This document shows, in pieces, positions 12,695-25,423 of a stretch of 64,000 nt of DNA. This DNA is from Sulfurihydrogenibium sp. GTDB lineage: Bacteria > Aquificota > Aquificia > Aquificales > Hydrogenothermaceae. Made by a program: the position numbers and the translations under genes. The stretch spans positions 2,325 to 66,324 of the forward strand of contig JBBIPN010000001.1 of the NCBI GenBank assembly GCA_037442825.1, read 5' to 3'. The notes below the pieces were generated by a model. The model searched no databases and was not told where the DNA came from. It was given only the letters and a program-made list of their open reading frames with translations. Positions within the stretch are counted from its first letter, which is position 1, and every line of letters begins with the position of its first letter.

Positions 12695-13327
12695 TTATTT
12701 AACAACCTCATCTATAATTTCTTTTATTTCTAAATCTAATTCTTTAAGTACTTTAATTGCTTCCACATCAAGATTTCCCATATATCTAATGAAAGTACTT
12801 GGTTTATAAGTTCCAACTACAATCTTTCCATCTTTTTCATAAATGTAAACTTTTAGTGGAAACTGTGAAGCAAGTTGTGGGTTGTTTTTTAGTATTACAG
12901 AACATTTTGATAGTTTACATACAAGGTAGATATTCATATTTTTCCAAAAGTTTTTTTCTCCTTGCTCTTCTAATCCTTTAGAAACGTGAATTATATGTAC
13001 TATCTTAAAGTTTTTATTTTCAAGTAGTGTTTGTATTGTTAGTTCTACTTCTTCTATGGATTTTGTTGTGGTTTTTTCATATATATCTGACATTTCTTCG
13101 TCTTCTGTATCTGTAGCTACTGCATTTGCAAGTGTAGATAAGAAAGATTTTTTCTCTGTGTTACTTGTAGTATTTTCTTTATTTGGCTTACTTAAACCTA
13201 TTTTTTCCTGTGGCTTTTCATCATAACCAGTTTCTAAATAATCTCCTGTTTCAAAGGATACATCTTTTATAGCACCACCACAAGAGAGTACAAAAGCAGA
13301 AAATGTTATTAAAAGTATCTTTCTCAT
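12695..13327 (-). CDS. Lipoprotein with C-terminal DUF302 domain
   Basis: Lipobox VLSC; acidic low-complexity linker; YLVCK ... PLKVYIYEKDGKIVVGTYKPS DUF302 pattern; ATGA overlap with soxB. Confidence 0.75.
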   Translation of the reverse strand: MRKILLITFSAFVLSCGGAIKDVSFETGDYLETGYDEKPQEKIGLSKPNKENTTSNTEKKSFLSTLANAVATDTEDEEMSDIYEKTTTKSIEEVELTIQTLLENKNFKIVHIIHVSKGLEEQGEKNFWKNMNIYLVCKLSKCSVILKNNPQLASQFPLKVYIYEKDGKIVVGTYKPSTFIRYMGNLDVEAIKVLKELDLEIKEIIDEVVK

Positions 13328-15057
13328 AAACATTCTCCTCTATCTGTAGGACATCCACAAACATAATCTAACACTCTTACATTTGATTTAAGTGGCGGAT
13401 TTACCTCTTTTACTCTTTTTATATAGTCTATGGTTATATCGTATACAGGTCTAAACTTCTTAGCATTTTTACCTGCTTTGTATAGATTTCCTCCCCATGA
13501 AGCTACCACGTAAGTTCTGTTCGTATCAAGGTCTTTACCATTTACCTTTATATTTGATAATCTTTGACCTGTCGGTGCTGATATTTTTATATCGTAATCT
13601 AATCCTAATGTTCTGCTCATATCTCCACCTTGTTGATAAAGTGGATTAGAGTTAAATGCATTATCTGCAACATCTTCAAGTATATTTTTAATCTGTGCTC
13701 CAGTAAGTTCAAATCTATAAACATTCGGGTATGTAATAGCTGTCATACTATAAACATCATCTACTGTTATATTATCTCCTGGTAATAACGTCGTTCCCCA
13801 TCTATAACCAGGGTTAAATACTATCTCACAGTCTGTTTCATCTTTTATTGCATCCATAATAACTCTATCAAATGTTGAGTAGAAAGTATCTCTCTTGTAC
13901 AAGATTTTTTGGGTTTTTCCAATTACTTCTGAAAGCTGTTTCTCATAAGGTTCGTAAAGTTTGTTTACTAAAGATTCTACTTCTTTATCTGGTTTTATAA
14001 AGTTTGAAGCAACTGGATAAAGTTTGTATGCAAAGTTTGTTATCTTTTTATTTTTTACTTCAAGATCAAGTCTTCCTAAATATTTTCCATGACTACCTGC
14101 TATAACTATAATTGTGTTATTTATCACAATTGGTTTTGGCGCTGGATCATGTGTATGTCCAGAAAGTATAACATCTATACCATTTACCATTTTTGCCAAT
14201 GCTTGGTCAACAGTAAATCCATCGTGAGAAAGTAAAACAACCAAATCAGCTCCTTTATTTCTTACTTCATCAACAAACTTTTGAAGTCTTTCTGGTTGTA
14301 TACCAAATGTCCATCCTTCTGTAAAATCTCTTGGGTTTGCTATAGGTGTGTAAGGAAAAGAGTTTCCAATAACTGCAACATTTACACCGCCAACATCTCT
14401 TATTGTGTAAGGTTTAAATATAAGTTCTCCCCACATATCATCAGCTATATTTTGAGATATAAACTCTGCTTTTAAATGTTTGTTTATAAGTTCTAAAACC
14501 TTTTCTTTTCCATATGTAAACTCCCAGTGACCTACCATAACGTCTATTCCAATAGCATTTTGAACTTCAACTATAGCTTGACCTTTTGTAAACAATCCTA
14601 TAGCTGTTCCTTGCCATGTATCTCCAGAATCCATAAATAAAACTTTATCACTACCTCTTTCAGCTTTTATCTGTTTTACTAAAGAAGATATATAAGCTAC
14701 ACCTCCCATTTTCCCATACTTCTTTGCAAGCTCTTCAAAGGCTATGTGTGTATCAAAATAAGCTCTAATCGTACTTGGTTTTATATTGTAGTATTTCATA
14801 AAAGCTTTACCACACAAAAACCCTGGAGTACCAATAAGTTCTTTCGCTGATATTAATGTTGAAGGTTCTCTCCAGTAAAGTGGTTTTAAATGAGCATGTA
14901 AATCGCATATATGGAGTAATGTCACATTTCCAACTGGCTTAAAATCAAAAAGTTTTTCTGGTTTAATATCGTTTAATTTTGCAAAAACGTTATCTGTAGT
15001 TAAAGATAATCCTGCTATAGCTGCAAGATGAAAAAGTTCTCTTCTTGATATATTCAT
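13324..15057 (-). CDS. soxB: Thiosulfohydrolase SoxB
   Basis: Tat motif SRRELF; CDLHAHL, DSGDTWQG, GHWEFT, LLSHDG and GHTHD motifs of the 5'-nucleotidase fold. Confidence 0.97.
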   Translation of the reverse strand: MNISRRELFHLAAIAGLSLTTDNVFAKLNDIKPEKLFDFKPVGNVTLLHICDLHAHLKPLYWREPSTLISAKELIGTPGFLCGKAFMKYYNIKPSTIRAYFDTHIAFEELAKKYGKMGGVAYISSLVKQIKAERGSDKVLFMDSGDTWQGTAIGLFTKGQAIVEVQNAIGIDVMVGHWEFTYGKEKVLELINKHLKAEFISQNIADDMWGELIFKPYTIRDVGGVNVAVIGNSFPYTPIANPRDFTEGWTFGIQPERLQKFVDEVRNKGADLVVLLSHDGFTVDQALAKMVNGIDVILSGHTHDPAPKPIVINNTIIVIAGSHGKYLGRLDLEVKNKKITNFAYKLYPVASNFIKPDKEVESLVNKLYEPYEKQLSEVIGKTQKILYKRDTFYSTFDRVIMDAIKDETDCEIVFNPGYRWGTTLLPGDNITVDDVYSMTAITYPNVYRFELTGAQIKNILEDVADNAFNSNPLYQQGGDMSRTLGLDYDIKISAPTGQRLSNIKVNGKDLDTNRTYVVASWGGNLYKAGKNAKKFRPVYDITIDYIKRVKEVNPPLKSNVRVLDYVCGCPTDRGECL

Positions 15058-15067
15058 TTTTGCCTCC

Positions 15068-15871
15068 TTATCTGACTAAACCCGGTGCTTCAATAGTTGC
15101 CCCATTTGATAAAGAAGTTACATATAACTCTAAGGCTACCATCTCTTTAGAACCTAATGGTAATACTTTCGTACTTGCTTGACTCATACATTGTTGAAAT
15201 CTTTGTTCTATTGTAAATACTTCACTTTTTGTCATTCTATAACCTGGCCAATGGGCTGCTGCTGTAGTACCTTTTAGACCATTATACTCATGACCTAAAG
15301 GATTGAGTTTCTGCATTCTTAAAACCATTCCAGCTGCGTTTTCATGACAGACAGCACAAGAAAGGTTTCTTTTTCCTCTTTTCAATTCAAAAACATATCT
15401 ACCATAGTTATAGTACTCTTTAACAACTGGGTTGGAAGAGGTATCAACATTTATTTTTTCACCGGAAGCTATATACTTCAAGTAAGTCACCAATGCTGTA
15501 TTCTCTTTGCTTTTTAAATTAAATGGTTTATCAACACCTTGATACAACTTTTGACACATCTGAATTCTCTGTTGAAGAGAGATAACAGCATTTAGTTTTT
15601 CATTGTATTTTGGATATGTTCCTACAGCTTTTTTAAGTTTATCTTCACTATGACAAGATACACATGATTTATTTGAGCTTCCCATAGGTTTATTAAAAAG
15701 CGCTCCACCAACTTCCTGTGCAAAAACTTCACCTGGATTGATACCTGATTGGTATAATTTTAAATCTTCTTCTGATATAGCTTGTCCAGCTTCTTCTGAT
15801 ATTGCTTTTATAGTAAATGATGTTATTAATACTAAAGTACCAAAAAGCAAGACTTTACCCTTTAATTTCAT
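15068..15871 (-). CDS. soxA: Sulfur oxidation c-type cytochrome SoxA (dihaem type)
   Basis: Two CxxCH motifs (CVSCH, CAVCH); HWPGYR and RFQQC axial-Cys region; ATG at 15871 follows GGAGGT. Confidence 0.95.
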   Translation of the reverse strand: MKLKGKVLLFGTLVLITSFTIKAISEEAGQAISEEDLKLYQSGINPGEVFAQEVGGALFNKPMGSSNKSCVSCHSEDKLKKAVGTYPKYNEKLNAVISLQQRIQMCQKLYQGVDKPFNLKSKENTALVTYLKYIASGEKINVDTSSNPVVKEYYNYGRYVFELKRGKRNLSCAVCHENAAGMVLRMQKLNPLGHEYNGLKGTTAAAHWPGYRMTKSEVFTIEQRFQQCMSQASTKVLPLGSKEMVALELYVTSLSNGATIEAPGLVR

Positions 15872-15902
15872 GGCAATGTTTACCTCCGTTTGTTTTTTCA
15901 AG

Positions 15903-15926
15903 AAAAAGGGCCTATAAGCCCTTTTT
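15903..15926 (-). terminator. Terminator-like hairpin between soxZ and soxA
   Basis: AAAAAGGGC-ctataa-GCCCTTTTT, perfect 9-bp stem with a U-tract. Confidence 0.7.
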
Positions 15927-15933
15927 AGATTAA

Positions 15934-16260
15934 CTAAAACTGAATGTTTATTATTTTCTCTGTAATGTCTCCTTGATTATCTTTCCAAACAATTTTAATT
16001 GGTTCTGCTTTTGTCAACTTAACATTAAAAGAAATAAACGGGTTTGCACTTACTGAACCAGAAAGTTTCATGGTAGTTATTTTTTCATTACCATAGTAAA
16101 CTTCTACATCTGTTATATGGTAAGCAGCTATATATTTTCCAGATTCTTTATCCTTTACAAGTTCAGTATCCATAGGATGCATAATAACGCTGTCAATCCT
16201 AACTATATCATCTTTCTTGTATTCTCTTGGATTAATTTTAACCATAGCTTGTTTTAGCAT
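15934..16260 (-). CDS. soxZ: Sulfur carrier subunit SoxZ
   Basis: IMHPMDT, HITDVEV, SVSANPFISF and WKDNQGD motifs; directly after soxY. Confidence 0.93.
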   Translation of the reverse strand: MLKQAMVKINPREYKKDDIVRIDSVIMHPMDTELVKDKESGKYIAAYHITDVEVYYGNEKITTMKLSGSVSANPFISFNVKLTKAEPIKIVWKDNQGDITEKIINIQF

Positions 16261-16303
16261 TTTATATCCTCCTTTTATTTATCAATTTATTTATCAATTT
16301 TTA

Positions 16304-16771
16304 TTAACCACAACCACCTATTGTTACTTTAACTGGTTTTTGAGCTTTTATAAATGTTCCGTCGTTTAGTTCTGCAACTGCTATAACGTTCATAGTCTCA
16401 GCTAATCTTATTCTTGTTGAGATGTAAGCTTTCCCATTTTGTGGAGTGAGATACACACTCATCGTGTGGGCATTATGGTTTTTATCTGCTAGTATATGGA
16501 TTGCTCTTACACTTTCAACTGGGAGCTCAATTTCAACAGTAACTGGAACAACTGCACCATTTTCTGCTATTTCTGGAGCTATAATTTTTACTTTATCTGA
16601 ATCACTTACAGATTTCCCGCCAGTGATTTCTTTTAAAACTTCCTCAAATGGTTTTTTCGGTGGTGGGTTGTCTACTAGTTGAACTGCTAAAGATTCATAA
16701 ATTAAAGAGCTTCCAAATGTTAAACTACCTACTGTTAAAGCAGCCATTTTTAAAAGTTTCCTTCTGTTCAT
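16304..16771 (-). CDS. soxY: Sulfur carrier protein SoxY
   Basis: Tat motif NRRKLL; PEIAENGAVVPV; C-terminal VKVTIGGCG swinging arm. Confidence 0.98.
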   Translation of the reverse strand: MNRRKLLKMAALTVGSLTFGSSLIYESLAVQLVDNPPPKKPFEEVLKEITGGKSVSDSDKVKIIAPEIAENGAVVPVTVEIELPVESVRAIHILADKNHNAHTMSVYLTPQNGKAYISTRIRLAETMNVIAVAELNDGTFIKAQKPVKVTIGGCG

Positions 16772-16781
16772 AAAAAACCTC

Positions 16782-17219
16782 CTAATTATTTTTCATAAAA
16801 TATTCGTTCATATCCATATTTTTATAGTTATCTGATGCGAAATAATCTAAAATTTTAAAGAAATCTTTCTCTTCCCAAGCACCAAATATAGATTTTATTT
16901 TTTTACCATCAGTTTCCAAAAAGTAAAACATAGGTGTTCCTATAAATCCATACTTTTTCCTAAACTCTATACCTTCTTTACTACATTTCCTTAATTTAAC
17001 TGGAATAAAGTCTTTATTTATCAAATCTTCCACTCTTTTACTTTCAAATACATTAAACTCCATAATATCACAGTAATGACAGGAAGGAGAATAAATGTAA
17101 ACAAGAACCAACTTATTTTCTTTCTTTGCCAAATCAAAAGCTTTCTCATAAGAAATCCAGTTTATATCAGCTTTTGCAATCCATATAAACAAAAGTAGAG
17201 GTAAAAATATTTTTCCCAT
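16782..17219 (-). CDS. Periplasmic thioredoxin-family protein (SoxW-like)
   Basis: Signal peptide; CHYC active site; GTPMFYF; located within the sox operon. Confidence 0.8.
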   Translation of the reverse strand: MGKIFLPLLLFIWIAKADINWISYEKAFDLAKKENKLVLVYIYSPSCHYCDIMEFNVFESKRVEDLINKDFIPVKLRKCSKEGIEFRKKYGFIGTPMFYFLETDGKKIKSIFGAWEEKDFFKILDYFASDNYKNMDMNEYFMKNN

Positions 17220-17223
17220 CTTT

Positions 17224-17739
17224 TTATTCCTGTGTTAGCAGATATGCTGTTAATTGGCAAACTTCTTCGTATGTTAACTGTCCTGTTGTTAGCTGAACTG
17301 TCATAATATTATAGTAAGGCACTTTTTCTAAATCTTTTGGTAATAAAACTCTTCCATCAGCTATCTTTTGATATAACCAATCAATGGTTTTTGGGTTTCC
17401 TCTATAATCTGGAGCTTTAAATAAACCATTTCTATATCCAGATAAGGATGGCCCTATATTACCACAACCTTTAGCATCTTTAACACAGTGACATGCTACA
17501 CAGTTACCTTTCTTTACTGTGTGAAAAACTTTAATACCTTTTTCTGCAAGTTTTTTTAGTGATTCTTTATCTGTTAGGTTACACTCTGGAGGAACTGCAT
17601 ATGTTCGTGACTTATCAGGTATATCTTTTAACATTGGTGTTTTTCCATCTGGTGATTCAATTCCTGCTTCATTTAAACTTAAAGCAAAAGTTAAACCTAC
17701 AGTTGAAACTACTGCCAAAAATACCTTTCTAAACTTCAT
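17224..17739 (-). CDS. soxX: Sulfur oxidation c-type cytochrome SoxX
   Basis: KGNCVACH haem motif, GNIGPSL, IMTVQ axial Met region. Confidence 0.93.
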   Translation of the reverse strand: MKFRKVFLAVVSTVGLTFALSLNEAGIESPDGKTPMLKDIPDKSRTYAVPPECNLTDKESLKKLAEKGIKVFHTVKKGNCVACHCVKDAKGCGNIGPSLSGYRNGLFKAPDYRGNPKTIDWLYQKIADGRVLLPKDLEKVPYYNIMTVQLTTGQLTYEEVCQLTAYLLTQE

Positions 17740-17775: not shown

Positions 17776-17792
17776 AGCAAATTTTATGCCAA
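17776..17792 (-). promoter_or_regulatory. sigma54 (-24/-12) promoter of the sox operon
   Basis: Minus strand TTGGCATAAAATTTGCT: GG and GC separated by exactly 10 nt, 37 nt upstream of the soxX ATG. Confidence 0.85.
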
Positions 17793-17834
17793 TTTTTAGG
17801 AGGCTATTTATAGTACTTCTCAAATAATAAACTA

Positions 17835-17869
17835 TCCAAAATGGAACAGTGTTGTCCAAAATGGAACAG
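17835..17869 (-). promoter_or_regulatory. Tandem enhancer (UAS) sites for a sigma54 activator
   Basis: Exact 15-bp direct repeat TCCAAAATGGAACAG at 17835 and 17855 (20-bp period); minus strand reads TGT-tccattttgg-ACA and TGT-tccattttgg-ATA. Confidence 0.7.
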
Positions 17870-21564: not shown

Positions 21565-21593
21565 AATATAAATCATCTTTAAGTTATTGTCAA
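21565..21593 (-). promoter_or_regulatory. sigma70-type promoter of fccAB
   Basis: TTGACA-N17-TATATT on the minus strand. Confidence 0.75.
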
Positions 21594-21599
21594 ATACAT

Positions 21600-21661
21600 A
21601 TTTAAATTAGTATATTTACATAATTTAAATTAGTATATTTATATATTTAAATTAGTATATT
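21600..21661. repeat. Three direct repeats ATTTAAATTAGTATATT
   Basis: Exact 17-mers at 21600, 21623 and 21645, immediately upstream of the fccA -35 box. Confidence 0.85.
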
Positions 21662-21748: not shown

Positions 21749-23068
21749 TTATAATAAACCAAAGTTCTTCATCTTGGTTCTTAACTGCTTCCTTGATATA
21801 CCTAATTTTTGAGCTGCCCTTGTTTGATTAAAATTTTCTTCTTCAAGAACTTTTAATATTACTCTTTTTTCTATTTCATAAAGATTTAAATTATCTTTAT
21901 CTAATATAGTATCAACTTTATTTTTAAAACTATTTTTTACTCTATCAGGTAAATGATCTACGTTAATTATCTCTCCCTGACATAAAACTACTGCCCTTTC
22001 TATAACATTTTCAAGCTGTCTAACATTTCCTGGCCAATCGTAATTAACAAGAACATCTAAAGCTTCCTTATCAATATCATAAATATTTTTCCCATTTATT
22101 TTGCTAAATTTACTAATAAATTTTTCAACAAGTAAAGATATATCTTCCTTTCTTTCTCTTAACGGTGGTATTTTTAAGTGTATTACGTTTATTCGATAAA
22201 ATAGATCTTCTCTAAATTCTTTATTTTCAACCATTTCTTCAAGATTTCTATTTGTTGCAGATATAAACCTGCATTTTACTTTCACTAATTCTTTTCCACC
22301 AATTCTAAAAAATTCTTTCTCTTGTAAAACTCTAAGTAATTTAGCTTGCATAAAAAGTGGCATATCTCCTATTTCATCTAAAAACAATGTTCCTTCTTCT
22401 GCAATTTCTATCTTTCCTATCTCCTTATTTAATGCTCCAGTGTATGCTCCTTTTTCATGTCCAAAAAGTTCATTCTCAAATAGGTCAGAAGGTATAGCAG
22501 AGCAGTTGATTGCTATAAAAGGCTTATCTTTTCTTTTTGAACGTTTATGGATAGCTTTAGCTACAAGTTCTTTTCCTGTCCCACTTTCTCCTTCTATAAG
22601 TATTGAAGATTCACTTTTACTAACAATATCAATTTCTTTAAAAAGTTCTCTCATCTTTTTACTTTTTCCTATTATTCCTTCAAATTCAGATTCTTCAAAT
22701 TTTTTTTCTTGTTTTTCTTTATAAAACTCAATAATCTTAATTAAGTTATCTGTATCTATAGGTTTTGGTATATAGTGATTTGCTCCTTTTTTTACCGCAT
22801 CTACAGCTCCATTTATAGAACCATAAGCTGTAATAATAATAAAAGGTGTATTAATATCAATTTTCCTAAAATATTCTAATATTTCTATCCCTGTCCCATC
22901 TTCTAAAAGAAAATCTGAAAGGATAAGGTTATATTGATTTTTAGATATTAAGTTTAAGCTGTCAGTTTTTGTTTTCGCTATATCAACACTGTATCCAGCT
23001 TGAGTTAAAACTGTTTTAATAACTCTTAATATACTTTCTTCATCATCAATAAGTAGAATCTTAAACAT
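21749..23068 (-). CDS. sigma54-dependent response regulator (NtrC family)
   Basis: Receiver domain (LLIDDE, ILSD, ITAYG); GESGTGKE; GAYTGA; LFLDEIGD; RFISATN; WPGNVRQLEN; Fis-type HTH. Confidence 0.96.
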   Translation of the reverse strand: MFKILLIDDEESILRVIKTVLTQAGYSVDIAKTKTDSLNLISKNQYNLILSDFLLEDGTGIEILEYFRKIDINTPFIIITAYGSINGAVDAVKKGANHYIPKPIDTDNLIKIIEFYKEKQEKKFEESEFEGIIGKSKKMRELFKEIDIVSKSESSILIEGESGTGKELVAKAIHKRSKRKDKPFIAINCSAIPSDLFENELFGHEKGAYTGALNKEIGKIEIAEEGTLFLDEIGDMPLFMQAKLLRVLQEKEFFRIGGKELVKVKCRFISATNRNLEEMVENKEFREDLFYRINVIHLKIPPLRERKEDISLLVEKFISKFSKINGKNIYDIDKEALDVLVNYDWPGNVRQLENVIERAVVLCQGEIINVDHLPDRVKNSFKNKVDTILDKDNLNLYEIEKRVILKVLEEENFNQTRAAQKLGISRKQLRTKMKNFGLL

Positions 23069-24617
23069 TTCTTCTAACCTTTATAGGTAGTTCTATTATA
23101 AATTTAGTGTATTTACGATACTCTGAATTTAAATTTATTGTTCCTCCATTTAAGAAAACGATTTTATAAACCATTGGTAAACCAAGACCTGTACCTTTTG
23201 GTTTTGTAGTAAAAAATGGTTTAAATATCCTTTCTTTATGCTCTTGTTTTATTCCTATCCCATTATCCTCTATAGTTAAAACGATTTTTTGTTTATTATC
23301 TACAAAACTGGTTTTTATTTTTATATATCCATCGTCTATATTTTTTTCTTTTATAGCATCTATAGAATTAAGAACAAGATTTACAATAGCTTGTTTTAGT
23401 AAGTTATCATCTAAAAAAATCAAAGGTAAATTTTCATCTAACTCTAAAATAAGTTTTATATTGTTATCTTCACAATCATAAATTAAAAGTTTAACAGAAT
23501 CTTTTACAACTTCATTTATATCTGTCAGTTTAAAGTTTGGTTCTATAAGTTTAGAGAAATTTAAAAATGATATTGTCATATCATTAAGTCTATTACTTTT
23601 TTCTTTTATAATTTTCCCAAACTCTCTTATTATTTCATCTTTAGAATTATTTTTTATATAGTTTGCTGCATTAGATATAGAATAAAGGGCATTTTTTATT
23701 TCATGTGCTATTTTTGCACTCATCTCCCCCATAGTAGCCATACAACGCAGTGTTTCCCTTTCTTTATAAGCTTCTTCAAGTTTCTTTATATAATCATTTA
23801 ATGATGCAACCATTATATAAAAACTGTAAGTAAGCTTGTCTACCTCATCTCCAGTGTATTTATTAAATACTTCACATTTAGAACACTCTTTAATAGCAAT
23901 TTCTCCTATATTTAAAAGTATGTCAGCTGAATCTTTTGAAGCTAACCAGCAAGTATCTAAAATATTTTTAATACACTCTCTATCATTTTTTGAGATTGGT
24001 TTTATATCTATTATTGTATTTAGATTATTAAAATCTTGAACAAATAAATTTAAAATTTTTTCTTTCAAATTTACAAGAGGTCTTACATTATAAGAAGAAA
24101 TTAAAAATATACCTACAAAGGAAGCAAAAAATATAAATAGTATTACTAAAGATAGGGGATATATAATATTTTCTATATCTTTGGCAAGTTCTTCTTTAAT
24201 AGTATCTTCATCGTAAAAGACAATTATTTTTCCTATAACATCATCACCAACGTCAAGATTAAAATAAAAAGATTTAAAACTTTGTTTGGTAAATCCAGTA
24301 TAAATTTTCCCTATATAAGATATATTTGAACTTCCAATTATTTTCCCCTCTTTGTCTGTTATAAAAACTTCTTTAACAGATTTATTTTTCATAACAAAAT
24401 TGACTAATTCATCTATCTTCTCAAAATTTTTAACAACTATTTTCTCTTTATAGCTTTCTGATAAACTAATAATATTATCTTCTAATGATTCAATTCTATC
24501 ATTTAAAATTTTTCCATAGAAACTATAGACAGTTAAAATCATAGAAGCAAAAAGAATAACTAATATATAAATTGAGATTGATAAAGATGTTTTAATCTTT
24601 ATGGATAAATTTTTCAT
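23061..24617 (-). CDS. Membrane sensor histidine kinase with a Cys-rich insert in HAMP
   Basis: Two TM segments, small periplasmic domain, HAMP, AHEIKN H-box, N-box, EDNGIG, PFFTTK and GTGLGL. Confidence 0.93.
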   Translation of the reverse strand: MKNLSIKIKTSLSISIYILVILFASMILTVYSFYGKILNDRIESLEDNIISLSESYKEKIVVKNFEKIDELVNFVMKNKSVKEVFITDKEGKIIGSSNISYIGKIYTGFTKQSFKSFYFNLDVGDDVIGKIIVFYDEDTIKEELAKDIENIIYPLSLVILFIFFASFVGIFLISSYNVRPLVNLKEKILNLFVQDFNNLNTIIDIKPISKNDRECIKNILDTCWLASKDSADILLNIGEIAIKECSKCEVFNKYTGDEVDKLTYSFYIMVASLNDYIKKLEEAYKERETLRCMATMGEMSAKIAHEIKNALYSISNAANYIKNNSKDEIIREFGKIIKEKSNRLNDMTISFLNFSKLIEPNFKLTDINEVVKDSVKLLIYDCEDNNIKLILELDENLPLIFLDDNLLKQAIVNLVLNSIDAIKEKNIDDGYIKIKTSFVDNKQKIVLTIEDNGIGIKQEHKERIFKPFFTTKPKGTGLGLPMVYKIVFLNGGTINLNSEYRKYTKFIIELPIKVRRNV

Positions 24618-25423
24618 TTTAAAACTGGGAAAAGGTCAAGTATTTTTCTATAGTTTTTTATTATTTCAAACATTTTTGGTTTTGGTTTTTCAAAGCCATC
24701 AATTTCCATACTCTTTAATGTTTCTTTATCTACTGTAAAAAGTGCTTTTTCTATTTGGTTATCTAAATTTTTATCTAAATTTTTATCAACCATTATAATA
24801 TGTCTTGGAAAAGAAGGTGATTTAGCTATAACTCTAAGCTGAGATTGATAAGGTATTAAACTTTCTTCTCTAATACCAGCAACATCTGCAACACCTGCTA
24901 AAAGTGATAAAATAGCACCTTTGTCTGTCCCAGAACTCCATATATTTACTACATCTTCCTGTGTAATACCAGCATTCGTAAGCATGTACAATGGCATAAC
25001 ACAGTTACTCATACAAATTGGACTACCAAGTGTTATTTTCTTTCCTTTCACATCACCTATAGACTTTATATTACTATCCTTTTTTACTACTAAAACACCA
25101 TTTTCAACAGCTTTTCCGTTTATTTTCATAACAGCTACTGCCTCTACGTTAAACTTCCTTTTCAACTCAAAATATACAACTGAGCAACCAACAGCTAAAT
25201 GAGCTTCTTTCTTTTTAAATAACCTATAAACTTCATCTACTTTTTCTACTATAATAACTTCCACTTCTTTATTTAGATTTTTAGATAGATATTTAGATAA
25301 CGCTGAATATCTTTTATATTCTTCAATAGGATTTCCATAAGATAAAACCACAAAGTTTAATCGTTCCTGTGCAAAAGATATACTAAATATACTGAATATA
25401 GCAATAATTATTTTTACAATCAT
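24614..25423 (-). CDS. Periplasmic binding protein, PhnD/phosphonate-binding fold
   Basis: Signal peptide; GVLVVKKDSNIKSIGDVKGK, LLAGVADVAG and KSPSFPRH patterns; ATGA overlap with the kinase; no ABC permease nearby. Confidence 0.85.
   Translation of the reverse strand: MIVKIIIAIFSIFSISFAQERLNFVVLSYGNPIEEYKRYSALSKYLSKNLNKEVEVIIVEKVDEVYRLFKKKEAHLAVGCSVVYFELKRKFNVEAVAVMKINGKAVENGVLVVKKDSNIKSIGDVKGKKITLGSPICMSNCVMPLYMLTNAGITQEDVVNIWSSGTDKGAILSLLAGVADVAGIREESLIPYQSQLRVIAKSPSFPRHIIMVDKNLDKNLDNQIEKALFTVDKETLKSMEIDGFEKPKPKMFEIIKNYRKILDLFPVLK

Follow-up and report, generated by a model that had tools for sequence, protein, structure and literature searches.

The window, a 64,000-nucleotide stretch of a contig of the hot-spring bacterium Sulfurihydrogenibium sp., carries on its minus strand the genes of an exported binding protein, a membrane histidine kinase and a sigma54-dependent response regulator (the X, S and R subunits of an X-S-R system), which are translationally coupled and lie upstream of fcc and sox genes. 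The features, in window coordinates, are the following:

24614..25423, minus strand: gene for the exported PhnD-fold binding protein (X subunit of X-S-R), an open reading frame of 269 aa matching PF12974
23061..24617, minus strand: gene for the membrane histidine kinase (S subunit, 518 aa), whose ATG overlaps the stop codon of the binding-protein gene (ATGA)
21749..23068, minus strand: gene for the sigma54-dependent response regulator (R subunit, 439 aa), with an 8-base overlap with the kinase gene
17833..17868, minus strand: pair of enhancer-like sites, TGTTCCATTTTGGACA and TGTTCCATTTTGGATA, separated by 20 bp and resembling the TspR site TGTCCCAAATGGGACA
17777..17791, minus strand: predicted sigma54 promoter TGGCATAAAATTTGC, 38 bp before the ATG (17739) of the cytochrome c gene in the soxX position
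13324..17739, minus strand: presumed target operon, comprising by Pfam matches the soxX-position cytochrome c, a SoxW-like thioredoxin, soxY, soxZ, soxA and soxB

Judged from the arrangement of its genes, the binding protein is encoded by the first gene of a binding-protein/histidine-kinase/sigma54-regulator operon. SoxB of the presumed target operon matches TIGR04486 (E 3.8e-251), rpoN was found in the genome, and a matching sigma54 promoter pattern stands ahead of soxX in four loci of relatives (L003-L006). A phosphate-type porin gene is present at the end of the cluster, and the sequencing runs for the stretch comprise four subsurface DNA metagenomes and no RNA runs.

This arrangement resembles TspS/TspR of the Acidithiobacillus caldus sox-II cluster (PMC6335251, PMC12194929) in that genes for a kinase and a sigma54 regulator immediately precede soxXYZA-B, and in combining a sigma54 promoter with a TGT..GGACA palindrome that resembles the TspR site, published as TGTCCCAAATGGGACA (PMC6335251). 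TspS is a kinase with a periplasmic sCache_3_2 domain (PMC12194929). The periplasmic part of the window kinase had no Pfam match, while kinases of relatives gave sub-threshold sCache_3_2 matches (E 5.5e-5 to 0.03, one of them listed as "weak"), and this weak similarity, reported for TspS as well, is seen in the kinases beside the related binding proteins of Acidithiobacillia and Thiohalorhabdus. The published model differs in that TspS itself senses thiosulfate, with no binding protein mentioned in either paper (PMC6335251, PMC12194929), whereas both here and in at least 20 loci of Acidithiobacillia a binding protein with the pair of cysteines described below precedes the kinase.

Linkage of the binding protein to sox genes was found at ~40 loci in several phyla. 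Where members of its clade had enough flanking DNA, a kinase, a sigma54 regulator and sox genes followed in nearly all of them, and the order binding protein-kinase-regulator-sox occurs in Hydrogenothermaceae, in Nitrospirota- and Desulfobacterota-labelled assemblies, and in Thiohalorhabdus, Acidithiobacillia and Thermithiobacillus. A thioredoxin-fold gene is conserved in the cluster, and YeeE-family genes adjoin the X-S-R genes at three loci (L007-L009). Within Hydrogenothermaceae, the presence of the binding protein tracks that of SoxB (both, 28; binding protein only, 2; SoxB only, 3; neither, 11). Two observations count against a role as receptor of a sox switch: in another genome of the same genus (G032) the binding-protein gene lies 79 kb from soxB, and at one locus (L001) no kinase or sox genes were found within 10 kb. 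Taken together, the fcc/sox neighbourhood, the linkage across phyla and the co-occurrence with SoxB in Hydrogenothermaceae support the claim, made earlier from the sequence, that the signal is a reduced inorganic sulfur compound, and we regard this as almost certainly correct.

The binding protein starts with a predicted N-terminal signal peptide (approximately residues 1-19, …SISFA/QE) and matches the Phosphonate-bd family PF12974 with E 2.1e-50 (171.8 bits against a cut-off of 27), the alignment spanning residues 24-251 and profile positions 1-241 of 242. Its AF2 model (pLDDT 90, pTM 0.80) has a two-lobed fold that appears superposable on PhnD and PtxB, and Foldseek matched this model to PtxB, ArrX, PhnD and AioX (PtxB 5o2j, E 9.9e-25, TM 0.71-0.73; PhnD, TM 0.64-0.66). 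While PhnD, PtxB and HtxB are its nearest matches in sequence and structure (PtxB, E 6e-14 by HMMER; Foldseek, ~1e-24), the protein differs from them in having no transporter partner, in the replacement of the anion-binding residues and in missing the family cut-offs.

[quoted passage not shown] However, the protein scores below the cut-offs of both the PhnD equivalog (TIGR03431, 85.9 against 261.1 bits) and the PhnD subfamily (TIGR01098, 94.4 against 112.05 bits), no PhnE permease over the cut-off was found in the 99%-complete genome (best 27.9 against 216.7 bits), C-M-S, D167 and V62/E107 stand in place of the PhnD-type Ser-Thr-Ser loop, the pocket His and both Tyr, and the genes to which this one is coupled encode a kinase and a regulator instead. 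We rejected the phosphonate-transporter reading on the sub-cut-off PhnD scores and the lack of PhnE, and a transporter role for any of these anions appears extremely improbable. Since the genes overlap (by ATGA and by 8 bases), the PhnD scores fall short and the genome has no PhnE match over the cut-off, the protein is better read as a receptor than as a transporter part, as had been claimed before; the sigma54 promoter before soxX and the sox linkage at ~40 loci speak for the same claim, and the protein is very probably the periplasmic receptor of a TspSR-type sox switch.

The 269-aa protein contains exactly three cysteines, C80, C137 and C141, which lie in two segments:

25172..25195, minus strand: AVGC80SVVY, in which C80 lies at the turn that follows strand 76-79 of lobe 1 and corresponds to AioX Cys106 and PhnD Gly65
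24992..25027, minus strand: G133-S-P-I-C137-M-S-N-C141-V-M-P144, the former anion loop, situated at the N-terminal end of helix 138-150 in lobe 2

On the raw sequence, the codon of C80 was read at 25184-25186 (gca, reverse complement TGC) and those of C137 and C141 at 25013-25015 and 25001-25003 (aca, reverse complement TGT), within the contexts ...HLAVGC80SVVYF... and ...LGSPIC137MSNC141VMPLY.... The HMMER alignment to PtxB places GSPICMSNCVMP of the binding protein over GDRASTSSHLIP of PtxB, and LAVGCSVVY over LAYFGPLSY. By alignment, C137 takes the position of the first Ser of the anion loop in PhnD and PtxB, with C137/M138/S139 aligning with S161/N162/S163 of AioX and the Ser-Thr-Ser loop of PhnD/PtxB, while C80 takes the position of PhnD Gly65, in a column that holds Cys in ArrX too and, via the genome's own AioX paralogue, Cys106 of AioX. 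The sequence-only reading had put cysteines at the oxyanion-loop site of PhnD-family proteins and a third in AVGCSVVY, all within 24995-25190; the raw codons and the PtxB alignment agree with this placement, and all three codons fall within that span.

C80 follows a lobe-1 strand and C137 begins a lobe-2 helix in the AF2 topology, and we infer the proximity of the two residues from the AioX alignment together with the topology of class II binding proteins. The pocket around them has been rebuilt: the His of PhnD and AioX is Asp in 93% of the clade (D167 in the window protein), the loop Ser/Thr hydroxyls are mostly gone from the clade (C-A-A-S, C-P-G-S), and both pocket Tyr positions are changed (V62, E107). 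Because of these three replacements, the cleft looks ill-suited to a tri-oxo dianion.

C80 and C137 are invariant in 74 of 74 distinct clade sequences, with identity down to ~22%. These 74 Cys-pair proteins are monophyletic in the tree (SH-aLRT 98) and come from Hydrogenothermaceae, Nitrospirota- and Desulfobacterota-labelled assemblies, Thiohalorhabdus and many Acidithiobacillia. By comparison, Cys occupies the C80 column in 9% and the C137 column in 1% of 91 other PhnD-type domains, and whenever the column read-outs showed C137 in a PhnD domain that was single or first, C80 was present too. Since the pair is invariant across relatives and rare in the 91 other domains, the pattern of cysteines at these two columns is, on the aligned sequences, not due to chance. 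Neither Ser nor Thr was found at either position among clade members with 22-29% overall identity, and the signature residues of the clade are Y36, C80, C137, D167 and A170. All 28 closer relatives (identity down to 46%) have C80 and C137, and 27 have C141, which is limited to the Hydrogenothermaceae subclade and is Ala in one member there. Thus, of the three-cysteine unit proposed from the sequence, the C80/C137 pair stands as a conserved element while C141 does not. Because C141 occurs only in this one subclade and is missing from most of the clade, the ligand-independent C137-C141 disulfide that had been put forward as the counter-explanation cannot be the reason for the retention of C137. 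The Cys-pair proteins constitute a previously undescribed family, present in several phyla, that probably acts as the outside sensor by which sulfur oxidation is turned on.

We propose that the cleft of the exported receptor would hold a reduced inorganic sulfur species between the two lobes, and that the receptor, once liganded and closed, would dock on the neighbouring kinase at its periplasmic domain. This kinase would phosphorylate the sigma54 activator, which would bind the two TGT-N10-ACA sites and open the sigma54 promoter that serves the sox operon (soxX-position cytochrome c, SoxW-like thioredoxin, soxYZAB). Each lobe would present one invariant cysteine to the ligand (lobe 1, C80; lobe 2, C137), and from the positions of these cysteines we consider it probable that the pair contacts the ligand. 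The pair may capture sulfane sulfur (from polysulfide/persulfide or derived from thiosulfate) reversibly, in the form of a persulfide or of a Cys-S(n)-Cys bridge, which would tie the lobes together; C141 might act as a family-specific third thiol, as a resolving or stabilising partner, and the SoxW-like thioredoxin of the cluster could reset the sensor. We favor covalent capture of this kind only tentatively, giving it slightly less than an even chance. It would amount to the chemistry of SoxR, SqrR and BigR, the ArsR-family two-Cys sulfane-sulfur sensors that likewise regulate sulfur oxidation genes, transferred to the periplasm and to the scaffold of AioX. [quoted passage not shown] These proteins are, however, cytoplasmic DNA-binding repressors of unrelated fold, and their likeness to the binding protein is functional only.

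The known regulators of sox fall into two groups, repressors in the cytoplasm (SoxR, CsoR-type) and kinases for which direct binding of thiosulfate is assumed (TspS, SulS). A passage of one source describes the sensing of reduced sulfur outside the cytoplasm by sulfur-oxidising bacteria as poorly understood (PMC11582611). It is possible, although less likely than not, that the binding protein represents the first extracytoplasmic two-Cys sulfane-sulfur receptor, a Venus-flytrap protein closed by a ligand-derived C80-C137 sulfur bridge, and that it provides the true signal input for the TspSR-type sox regulators of Aquificota, Nitrospirota, Desulfobacterota, Acidithiobacillia and Thiohalorhabdales. 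If the two-Cys receptor reading held, the published two-component model would have been drawn without its receptor. The proteins of the family are small, soluble and easily expressed, and are likely the primary receptor of the sigma54-type sox switch. If they are, the question of how reduced sulfur is sensed would become directly testable, the model for the Acidithiobacillia used in bioleaching would need revision, and biosensors that detect reduced sulfur species could be built on a thermostable scaffold.

Several points count against covalent capture. Thiosulfate without an oxidant does not add to thiols, the pair is conserved in extreme acidophiles too, where thiolate chemistry is slow, and ArrX has the C80-equivalent cysteine, yet the ligand described for it is the oxyanion arsenate. 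In addition, the literature proposes thiosulfate as the TspS/TspR signal (PMC6335251), and the essential, non-replaceable cysteines of YeeE can act on thiosulfate without covalent bonds (PMC7449682). The cleft could instead bind thiosulfate (or tetrathionate or sulfite) non-covalently, the sulfonate being held by the amides of the helix N-terminus, S139/N140 and R/K185, and the terminal sulfur by S-H···S contacts from the thiols, which would select thiosulfate over sulfate and phosphate. In favor of such a receptor are the proposed TspS/TspR signal itself, the YeeE-family genes that adjoin X-S-R at L007-L009, the basic residue 185 that replaces AioX Asp210 in the Hydrogenothermaceae subclade, and two precedents. 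One is the thiosulfate channel YeeE/TsuA (PMC7449682), whose three conserved, essential cysteines cannot be replaced by Ser, line the thiosulfate path and are proposed to relay thiosulfate by S-H-S hydrogen bonds, although as a membrane channel of unrelated fold it is a precedent only for cysteine-sulfur recognition. The other is ThsS and TtrS (PMC5408782, PMC11293645), in which PhnD-like domains are the proposed thiosulfate and tetrathionate modules; by description these also sense a sulfur oxyanion outside the cytoplasm, but they are fused to their kinases, and the regulators involved do not depend on sigma54. The NF040750 profile, for TtrS, gave no match over the cut-off in its control genomes. 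Non-covalent binding is less easily reconciled with the rebuilt pocket, from which the oxyanion-binding hydroxyl and His donors of PhnD, PtxB and AioX are largely gone and which carries an Asp in 93% of the clade, or with R/K185, which is not conserved beyond the Hydrogenothermaceae subclade; moreover, where two cysteines of opposite lobes are both strictly invariant, a reactive pair is the more typical case. We rank covalent sulfane-sulfur capture first and consider non-covalent thiosulfate binding rather unlikely.

The cysteines might also make no contact with the ligand and form a structural disulfide (C80-C137 or C137-C141), or a general thiol/disulfide switch responding to the periplasmic redox state. 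Disulfides are frequent in exported proteins, the cluster has its conserved thioredoxin-fold gene, and the genome gave one weak DsbA-like match. On the other hand, C137 is invariant while most of the clade lacks C141, clamshell signalling would be abolished if a fixed C80-C137 bond held the lobes together, and both cysteines map to ligand-contact positions of AioX and PhnD. A search of the genome detected neither DsbB nor VKOR, so constitutive oxidation of periplasmic thiols would not be expected, and we judge a purely structural or redox role very unlikely. Alternatively, the thiols together with D167 (and E107) could hold a sulfide-binding metal or bind a thio-metalloid (arsenite, thioarsenate). 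A site of three thiols is classic for As(III), interlobe metal sites occur in the wider PhnD/transferrin fold, the clade signature includes the acidic D167 and Y36, and C80 occupies the arsenite-bonding position of AioX. Yet the third cysteine is absent outside one family, and sox linkage was found at every target-clade locus that showed its neighbouring operon, in a screen to which arsenic oxidoreductase genes did not belong. A metal- or metalloid-mediated sensor therefore seems improbable, and the comparison with the arsenic sensors also separates the two groups.

AioX, ArxX and ArrX share with the binding protein the PhnD fold (Foldseek TM 0.62-0.76) and the X-S-R gene order with a sigma54 regulator. 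The AioX pocket consists of Cys106, Tyr88, Tyr131, Ser161, Ser163, His192 and Asp210, and the crystal structure shows Cys106 linked to arsenite (PMC5908839). The binding protein keeps a cysteine at the Cys106 position (C80) and the Ser163 equivalent (S139), but differs at five of the seven pocket residues (Y88 to V62, Y131 to E107, S161 to C137, H192 to D167 and D210 to R185), has a second invariant cysteine from the other lobe, and is encoded beside fcc and sox genes rather than arsenic oxidoreductases. In the tree, AioX-like sequences form a clade of their own (99), which includes the paralogue encoded beside aioBA in the same genome, and the target clade is separate (98). Since that genome holds a canonical aioB-aioA-aioX-aioS-aioR cluster on contig C31, arsenite sensing is already covered. 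The arsenite-sensor reading, which the AioX-like cysteine had made the first candidate, was downgraded on this genuine cluster and on the sox linkage across phyla. The AioX of the genome matches NT-26 AioX with E 4e-35 and keeps the C, S-N-S and H residues (one cysteine plus the Ser loop), the aligned NT-26 motif at Cys106 being WICGYPF. This one-cysteine paralogue constitutes a natural specificity control within the same genome.

The binding protein under study is encoded by a single ORF in the window:

24614-25423, minus strand: target gene, ORF of 269 aa

Its cysteine codons were verified on the raw DNA at 25184-25186 (C80, in LAVGC80SVVY), 25013-25015 (C137) and 25001-25003 (C141; both in LGSPIC137MSNC141VMPLY). 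The protein contains no other Cys, and the motifs quoted in the sequence-only reading were borne out as written. The N-terminus (MIVKIIIAIFSIFSISFA/QE) reads as a predicted Sec signal peptide. The protein matched Pfam PF12974 over its whole length (E 2.1e-50), scored far under the cut-off of the true-PhnD NCBIfam model (85.9 bits, cut-off 261.1) and fell under that of the NCBIfam phosphate/phosphite/phosphonate subfamily model (94.4 bits, cut-off 112.05). Its AF2 model (pLDDT 90, pTM 0.80) is a two-lobed class II binding protein, for which the best Foldseek matches were PtxB, ArrX, PhnD, AioX and HtxB (TM 0.62-0.80). HMMER aligned GSPICMSNCVMP of the target with GDRASTSSHLIP of PtxB and LAVGCSVVY with PtxB LAYFGPLSY, and alignment to ArrX paired C80 with the Cys of LAFICTYSF.

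The target stop codon shares ATGA with the start of a 518-aa membrane histidine kinase gene, which in turn overlaps the gene of a 439-aa sigma54-dependent response regulator by 8 bases. Downstream of the regulator on the same strand lie, first, cytochrome c and FCSD flavoprotein genes, and also genes for a Rieske-like protein and a second FCSD-like flavoprotein, a soxX-position cytochrome c, a SoxW-like thioredoxin, SoxY, SoxZ, SoxA, SoxB, a DUF302 protein and a porin. The sole good sigma54 promoter of this region, TGGCATAAAATTTGC, is located 38 bp 5' of the soxX-position ATG, and ahead of it stand two copies of TGTTCCATTTTGGA(C/T)A, a palindrome resembling the published TspR site of Acidithiobacillus caldus, TGTCCCAAATGGGACA (PMC6335251). 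The promoter pattern also precedes soxX in related loci, and rpoN is present in the source genome. No PhnE-type permease exceeded its cut-off in this 99%-complete genome, which, with the binding protein/kinase/regulator composition of the operon, argues that the target is not a transporter part. Thus, the operon coupling, the soxX promoter and the lack of PhnE mark the target as the first subunit of a binding-protein/kinase/regulator (X-S-R) system that very probably controls sox.

The regulator gene is separated from the cytochrome c/FCSD genes by a 188-bp gap with three direct copies of AATATACTAATTTAAAT (21565-21661). This gap has no sigma54 box, which suggests that control of the fcc genes is separate from that of sox. 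Within the kinase, a cytoplasmic linker (23850-24020, residues about 200-255) carries four Cys, C-x9-C … C-x2-C, at the expected HAMP place.

The source genome has a single further PhnD-fold protein, encoded on contig C31 (locus L042) within an aioB-aioA-X-S-R cluster:

C31 7355-14435, minus strand: complete arsenite oxidase cluster
C31 13941-14435, minus strand: aioB (Rieske subunit)
C31 11302-13914, minus strand: aioA (molybdopterin subunit with Rieske_3)
C31 10361-11194, minus strand: AioX-like binding protein with one pocket Cys, a Ser-Asn-Ser loop and His
C31 8697-10364, minus strand: PAS kinase
C31 7355-8707, minus strand: sigma54 regulator

This paralogue matched AioX of strain NT-26 (E 4e-35), reproducing WICGYPF, FSDPDSNSG and TYGH, and can thereby serve as a natural control, with one Cys, for the sox-linked protein with three. 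In crystallised NT-26 AioX, arsenite is joined to the sulfur of Cys106 in a pocket formed by Tyr88, Cys106, Tyr131, Ser161, Ser163, His192 and Asp210 (PMC5908839). We derived the equivalent target residues by aligning the target with the paralogue.

AioX residues and their equivalents in the target
Tyr88: V62
Cys106: C80
Tyr131: E107
Ser161: C137
Asn162: M138
Ser163: S139
His192: D167
Asp210: R185

Two of the three cysteines, C80 and C137, stand where AioX contacts its ligand. Of the seven pocket residues, five are changed, making the earlier description of a "rebuilt" cleft a fair one. In the AF2 topology, lobe-1 strand 76-79 leads into C80, and C137 stands at the N-terminal end of lobe-2 helix 138-150, which suggests that the two belong to opposite lobes; C141 is one helical turn beyond C137.

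Among 28 aligned members of the 33 close relatives (at least 46% identity, from Hydrogenothermaceae-type genomes and metagenomes), C80 and C137 were invariant and C141 was present in 27. In an exhaustive profile search of 1.84 billion representatives, the target clade was a single representative (396 bits), followed by a match at 188 bits. The nearest sequences outside the close relatives keep C80 and C137 without C141; the same columns read Cys and Ser in AioX/ArrX-like proteins and Gly and Ser in ordinary PhnD/PtxB. A maximum-likelihood tree of 119 PhnD-type domains united the Cys-pair proteins in one clade (SH-aLRT 98), with the three-Cys Hydrogenothermaceae proteins as a subclade (support 100) and AioX-like sequences, including the C31 paralogue, in a different clade (support 99).

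Residue frequencies in 74 distinct Cys-pair clade members and in 91 other PhnD-type domains
Y36: clade 0.95, other 0.20
C80: clade 1.00, other 0.09
C137: clade 1.00, other 0.01
D167: clade 0.93, other 0.08
A170: clade 1.00, other 0.08

The Cys pair is therefore a real, strongly conserved feature, and C141 is a Hydrogenothermaceae addition. The target would best be classed as an AioX-type sensor binding-protein variant dedicated to sulfur and defined by the inter-lobe pair. In the Acidithiobacillia loci L016-L037, plus L008 and L009, the sox-linked protein, about 480-530 aa long, consists of two PhnD-type domains in tandem; in Acidithiobacillia the second domain, where read out, keeps the C137-equivalent Cys (SPYCS) and has Thr or Ser at position 80.

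Across 151 Aquificota genomes, the three-Cys protein was confined to Hydrogenothermaceae, the window's own family, in which 28 genomes had both it and SoxB, 2 the protein only, 3 SoxB only and 11 neither (Fisher's test, p = 3e-6, indicative only, the genomes being related). The gene lies 5-13 kb from soxB in 18 of the 19 genomes with both on one contig, the exception being the same-genus genome G032 (79 kb). Three outsider loci, on a metagenome contig (protein closest to 'Candidatus Sulfobium', Nitrospirota, entries), a Desulfobacterota-labelled assembly and a third assembly, carry soxYZ and soxB (soxA in two) followed by the binding protein, kinase, sigma54 regulator, a YeeE-like transporter and DUF302. 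Thiohalorhabdus has the module with soxXYZAB, one further lineage has it with soxYBZ, and an Acidithiobacillus MAG has the tandem binding protein, kinase, regulator, soxYZ, DUF302 and soxB. A scan of named genomes yielded 25 loci, including those of A. ferrivorans, A. ferriphilus, A. ferrianus, A. marinus, A. sulfurivorans, A. montserratensis, A. sulfuriphilus, Igneacidithiobacillus copahuensis and Thermithiobacillus tepidarius; in local-BLAST gene maps, nearly all were arranged as binding protein, kinase, regulator and then sox, and every first domain had C80 and C137.

At the non-Aquificota loci L007 (11995-14038), L008 (12558-14370) and L009 (12396-14101), a YeeE-family transporter and DUF302 directly follow X-S-R, suggesting that the same switch also controls sulfur import; a TusA gene follows too at L007. 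At the Aquificota loci L001 (8992-10816) and L005/L006 (9016-10819), the Cys-lined binding-protein gene shows translational coupling to a pair of DsrE-like genes upstream of it and runs divergently from the regulator-sox operon, and no kinase or sox genes were found within 10 kb of the L001 gene.

Taken together, the operon structure, the soxX promoter, the lack of a transporter and the conserved link to sox make it very probable that the target is the receptor of a sox-controlling switch, and the signal it reads must be something announcing Sox substrates. That it is instead a phosphonate transporter binding protein is extremely improbable given its scores under the PhnD and subfamily cut-offs and the lack of PhnE. 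We rank first, tentatively and at somewhat less than even chances, that the Cys pair would capture sulfane sulfur covalently. Neither Cys is ever swapped for Ser at 22-29% overall identity, the two come from opposite lobes, and the C80-equivalent position of AioX forms the link to its ligand; the pocket carries a fixed Asp and has lost most of the fold's oxygen-binding hydroxyls as well as its His and Tyr. SoxR, a sox repressor of the cytoplasm, detects sulfane sulfur by means of just such a pair, between which tri- to pentasulfide bridges form (PMC10451225). No DsbB or VKOR homologue was detected in the source genome and its only DsbA-like match was weak; its periplasmic disulfide-forming machinery seems absent or unconventional, and without DsbB/VKOR the resting target probably has free thiols.

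Non-covalent thiosulfate binding, which we rank second, is possible but rather doubtful. Thiosulfate is the proposed TspSR signal (PMC6335251), PhnD-like modules are the proposed thiosulfate/tetrathionate sensing domains of ThsS and TtrS (PMC5408782, PMC11293645), and YeeE has essential cysteines, not replaceable by Ser, with proposed S-H-S hydrogen bonds to thiosulfate (PMC7449682); acidophiles, in which thiolates react slowly, also keep the pair. A metal or metalloid site is unlikely, as the same genome has a genuine AioX and the Cys-pair family is linked to sox. A purely structural or generic redox role is a shade less likely again, as most of the clade does without C141 and permanent bonding of the two lobes would keep the clamshell from moving.

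The X-S-R layout is common to AioXSR, and the regulator, promoter and target operon match those of TspS/TspR. TspSR has been described as a two-component system in which TspS senses thiosulfate (PMC6335251, PMC12194929), with an sCache_3_2 domain reported in TspS (PMC12194929), and neither description mentions a binding protein. The kinases adjoining Cys-pair proteins in Acidithiobacillia and Thiohalorhabdus give a weak sCache_3_2 signal, as in TspS, and thus look like TspS relatives with an unnoticed binding-protein partner. Full-text literature searches returned nothing relevant on a PhnD-type protein in sox regulation.

L010 (9001-14396) wires this sensor fold differently. Its AioX-like (Cys and Ser) binding protein stands ahead of a membrane HAMP-sigma54 activator, a lone receiver protein and multihaem cytochromes, and no separate kinase is encoded there. 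The SulRS-controlled sox operon of Sulfurimonas hydrogeniphila shares its transcript with an unstudied 'ABC transporter substrate-binding protein' (PMC12936845), which might be another sensor-type binding protein.
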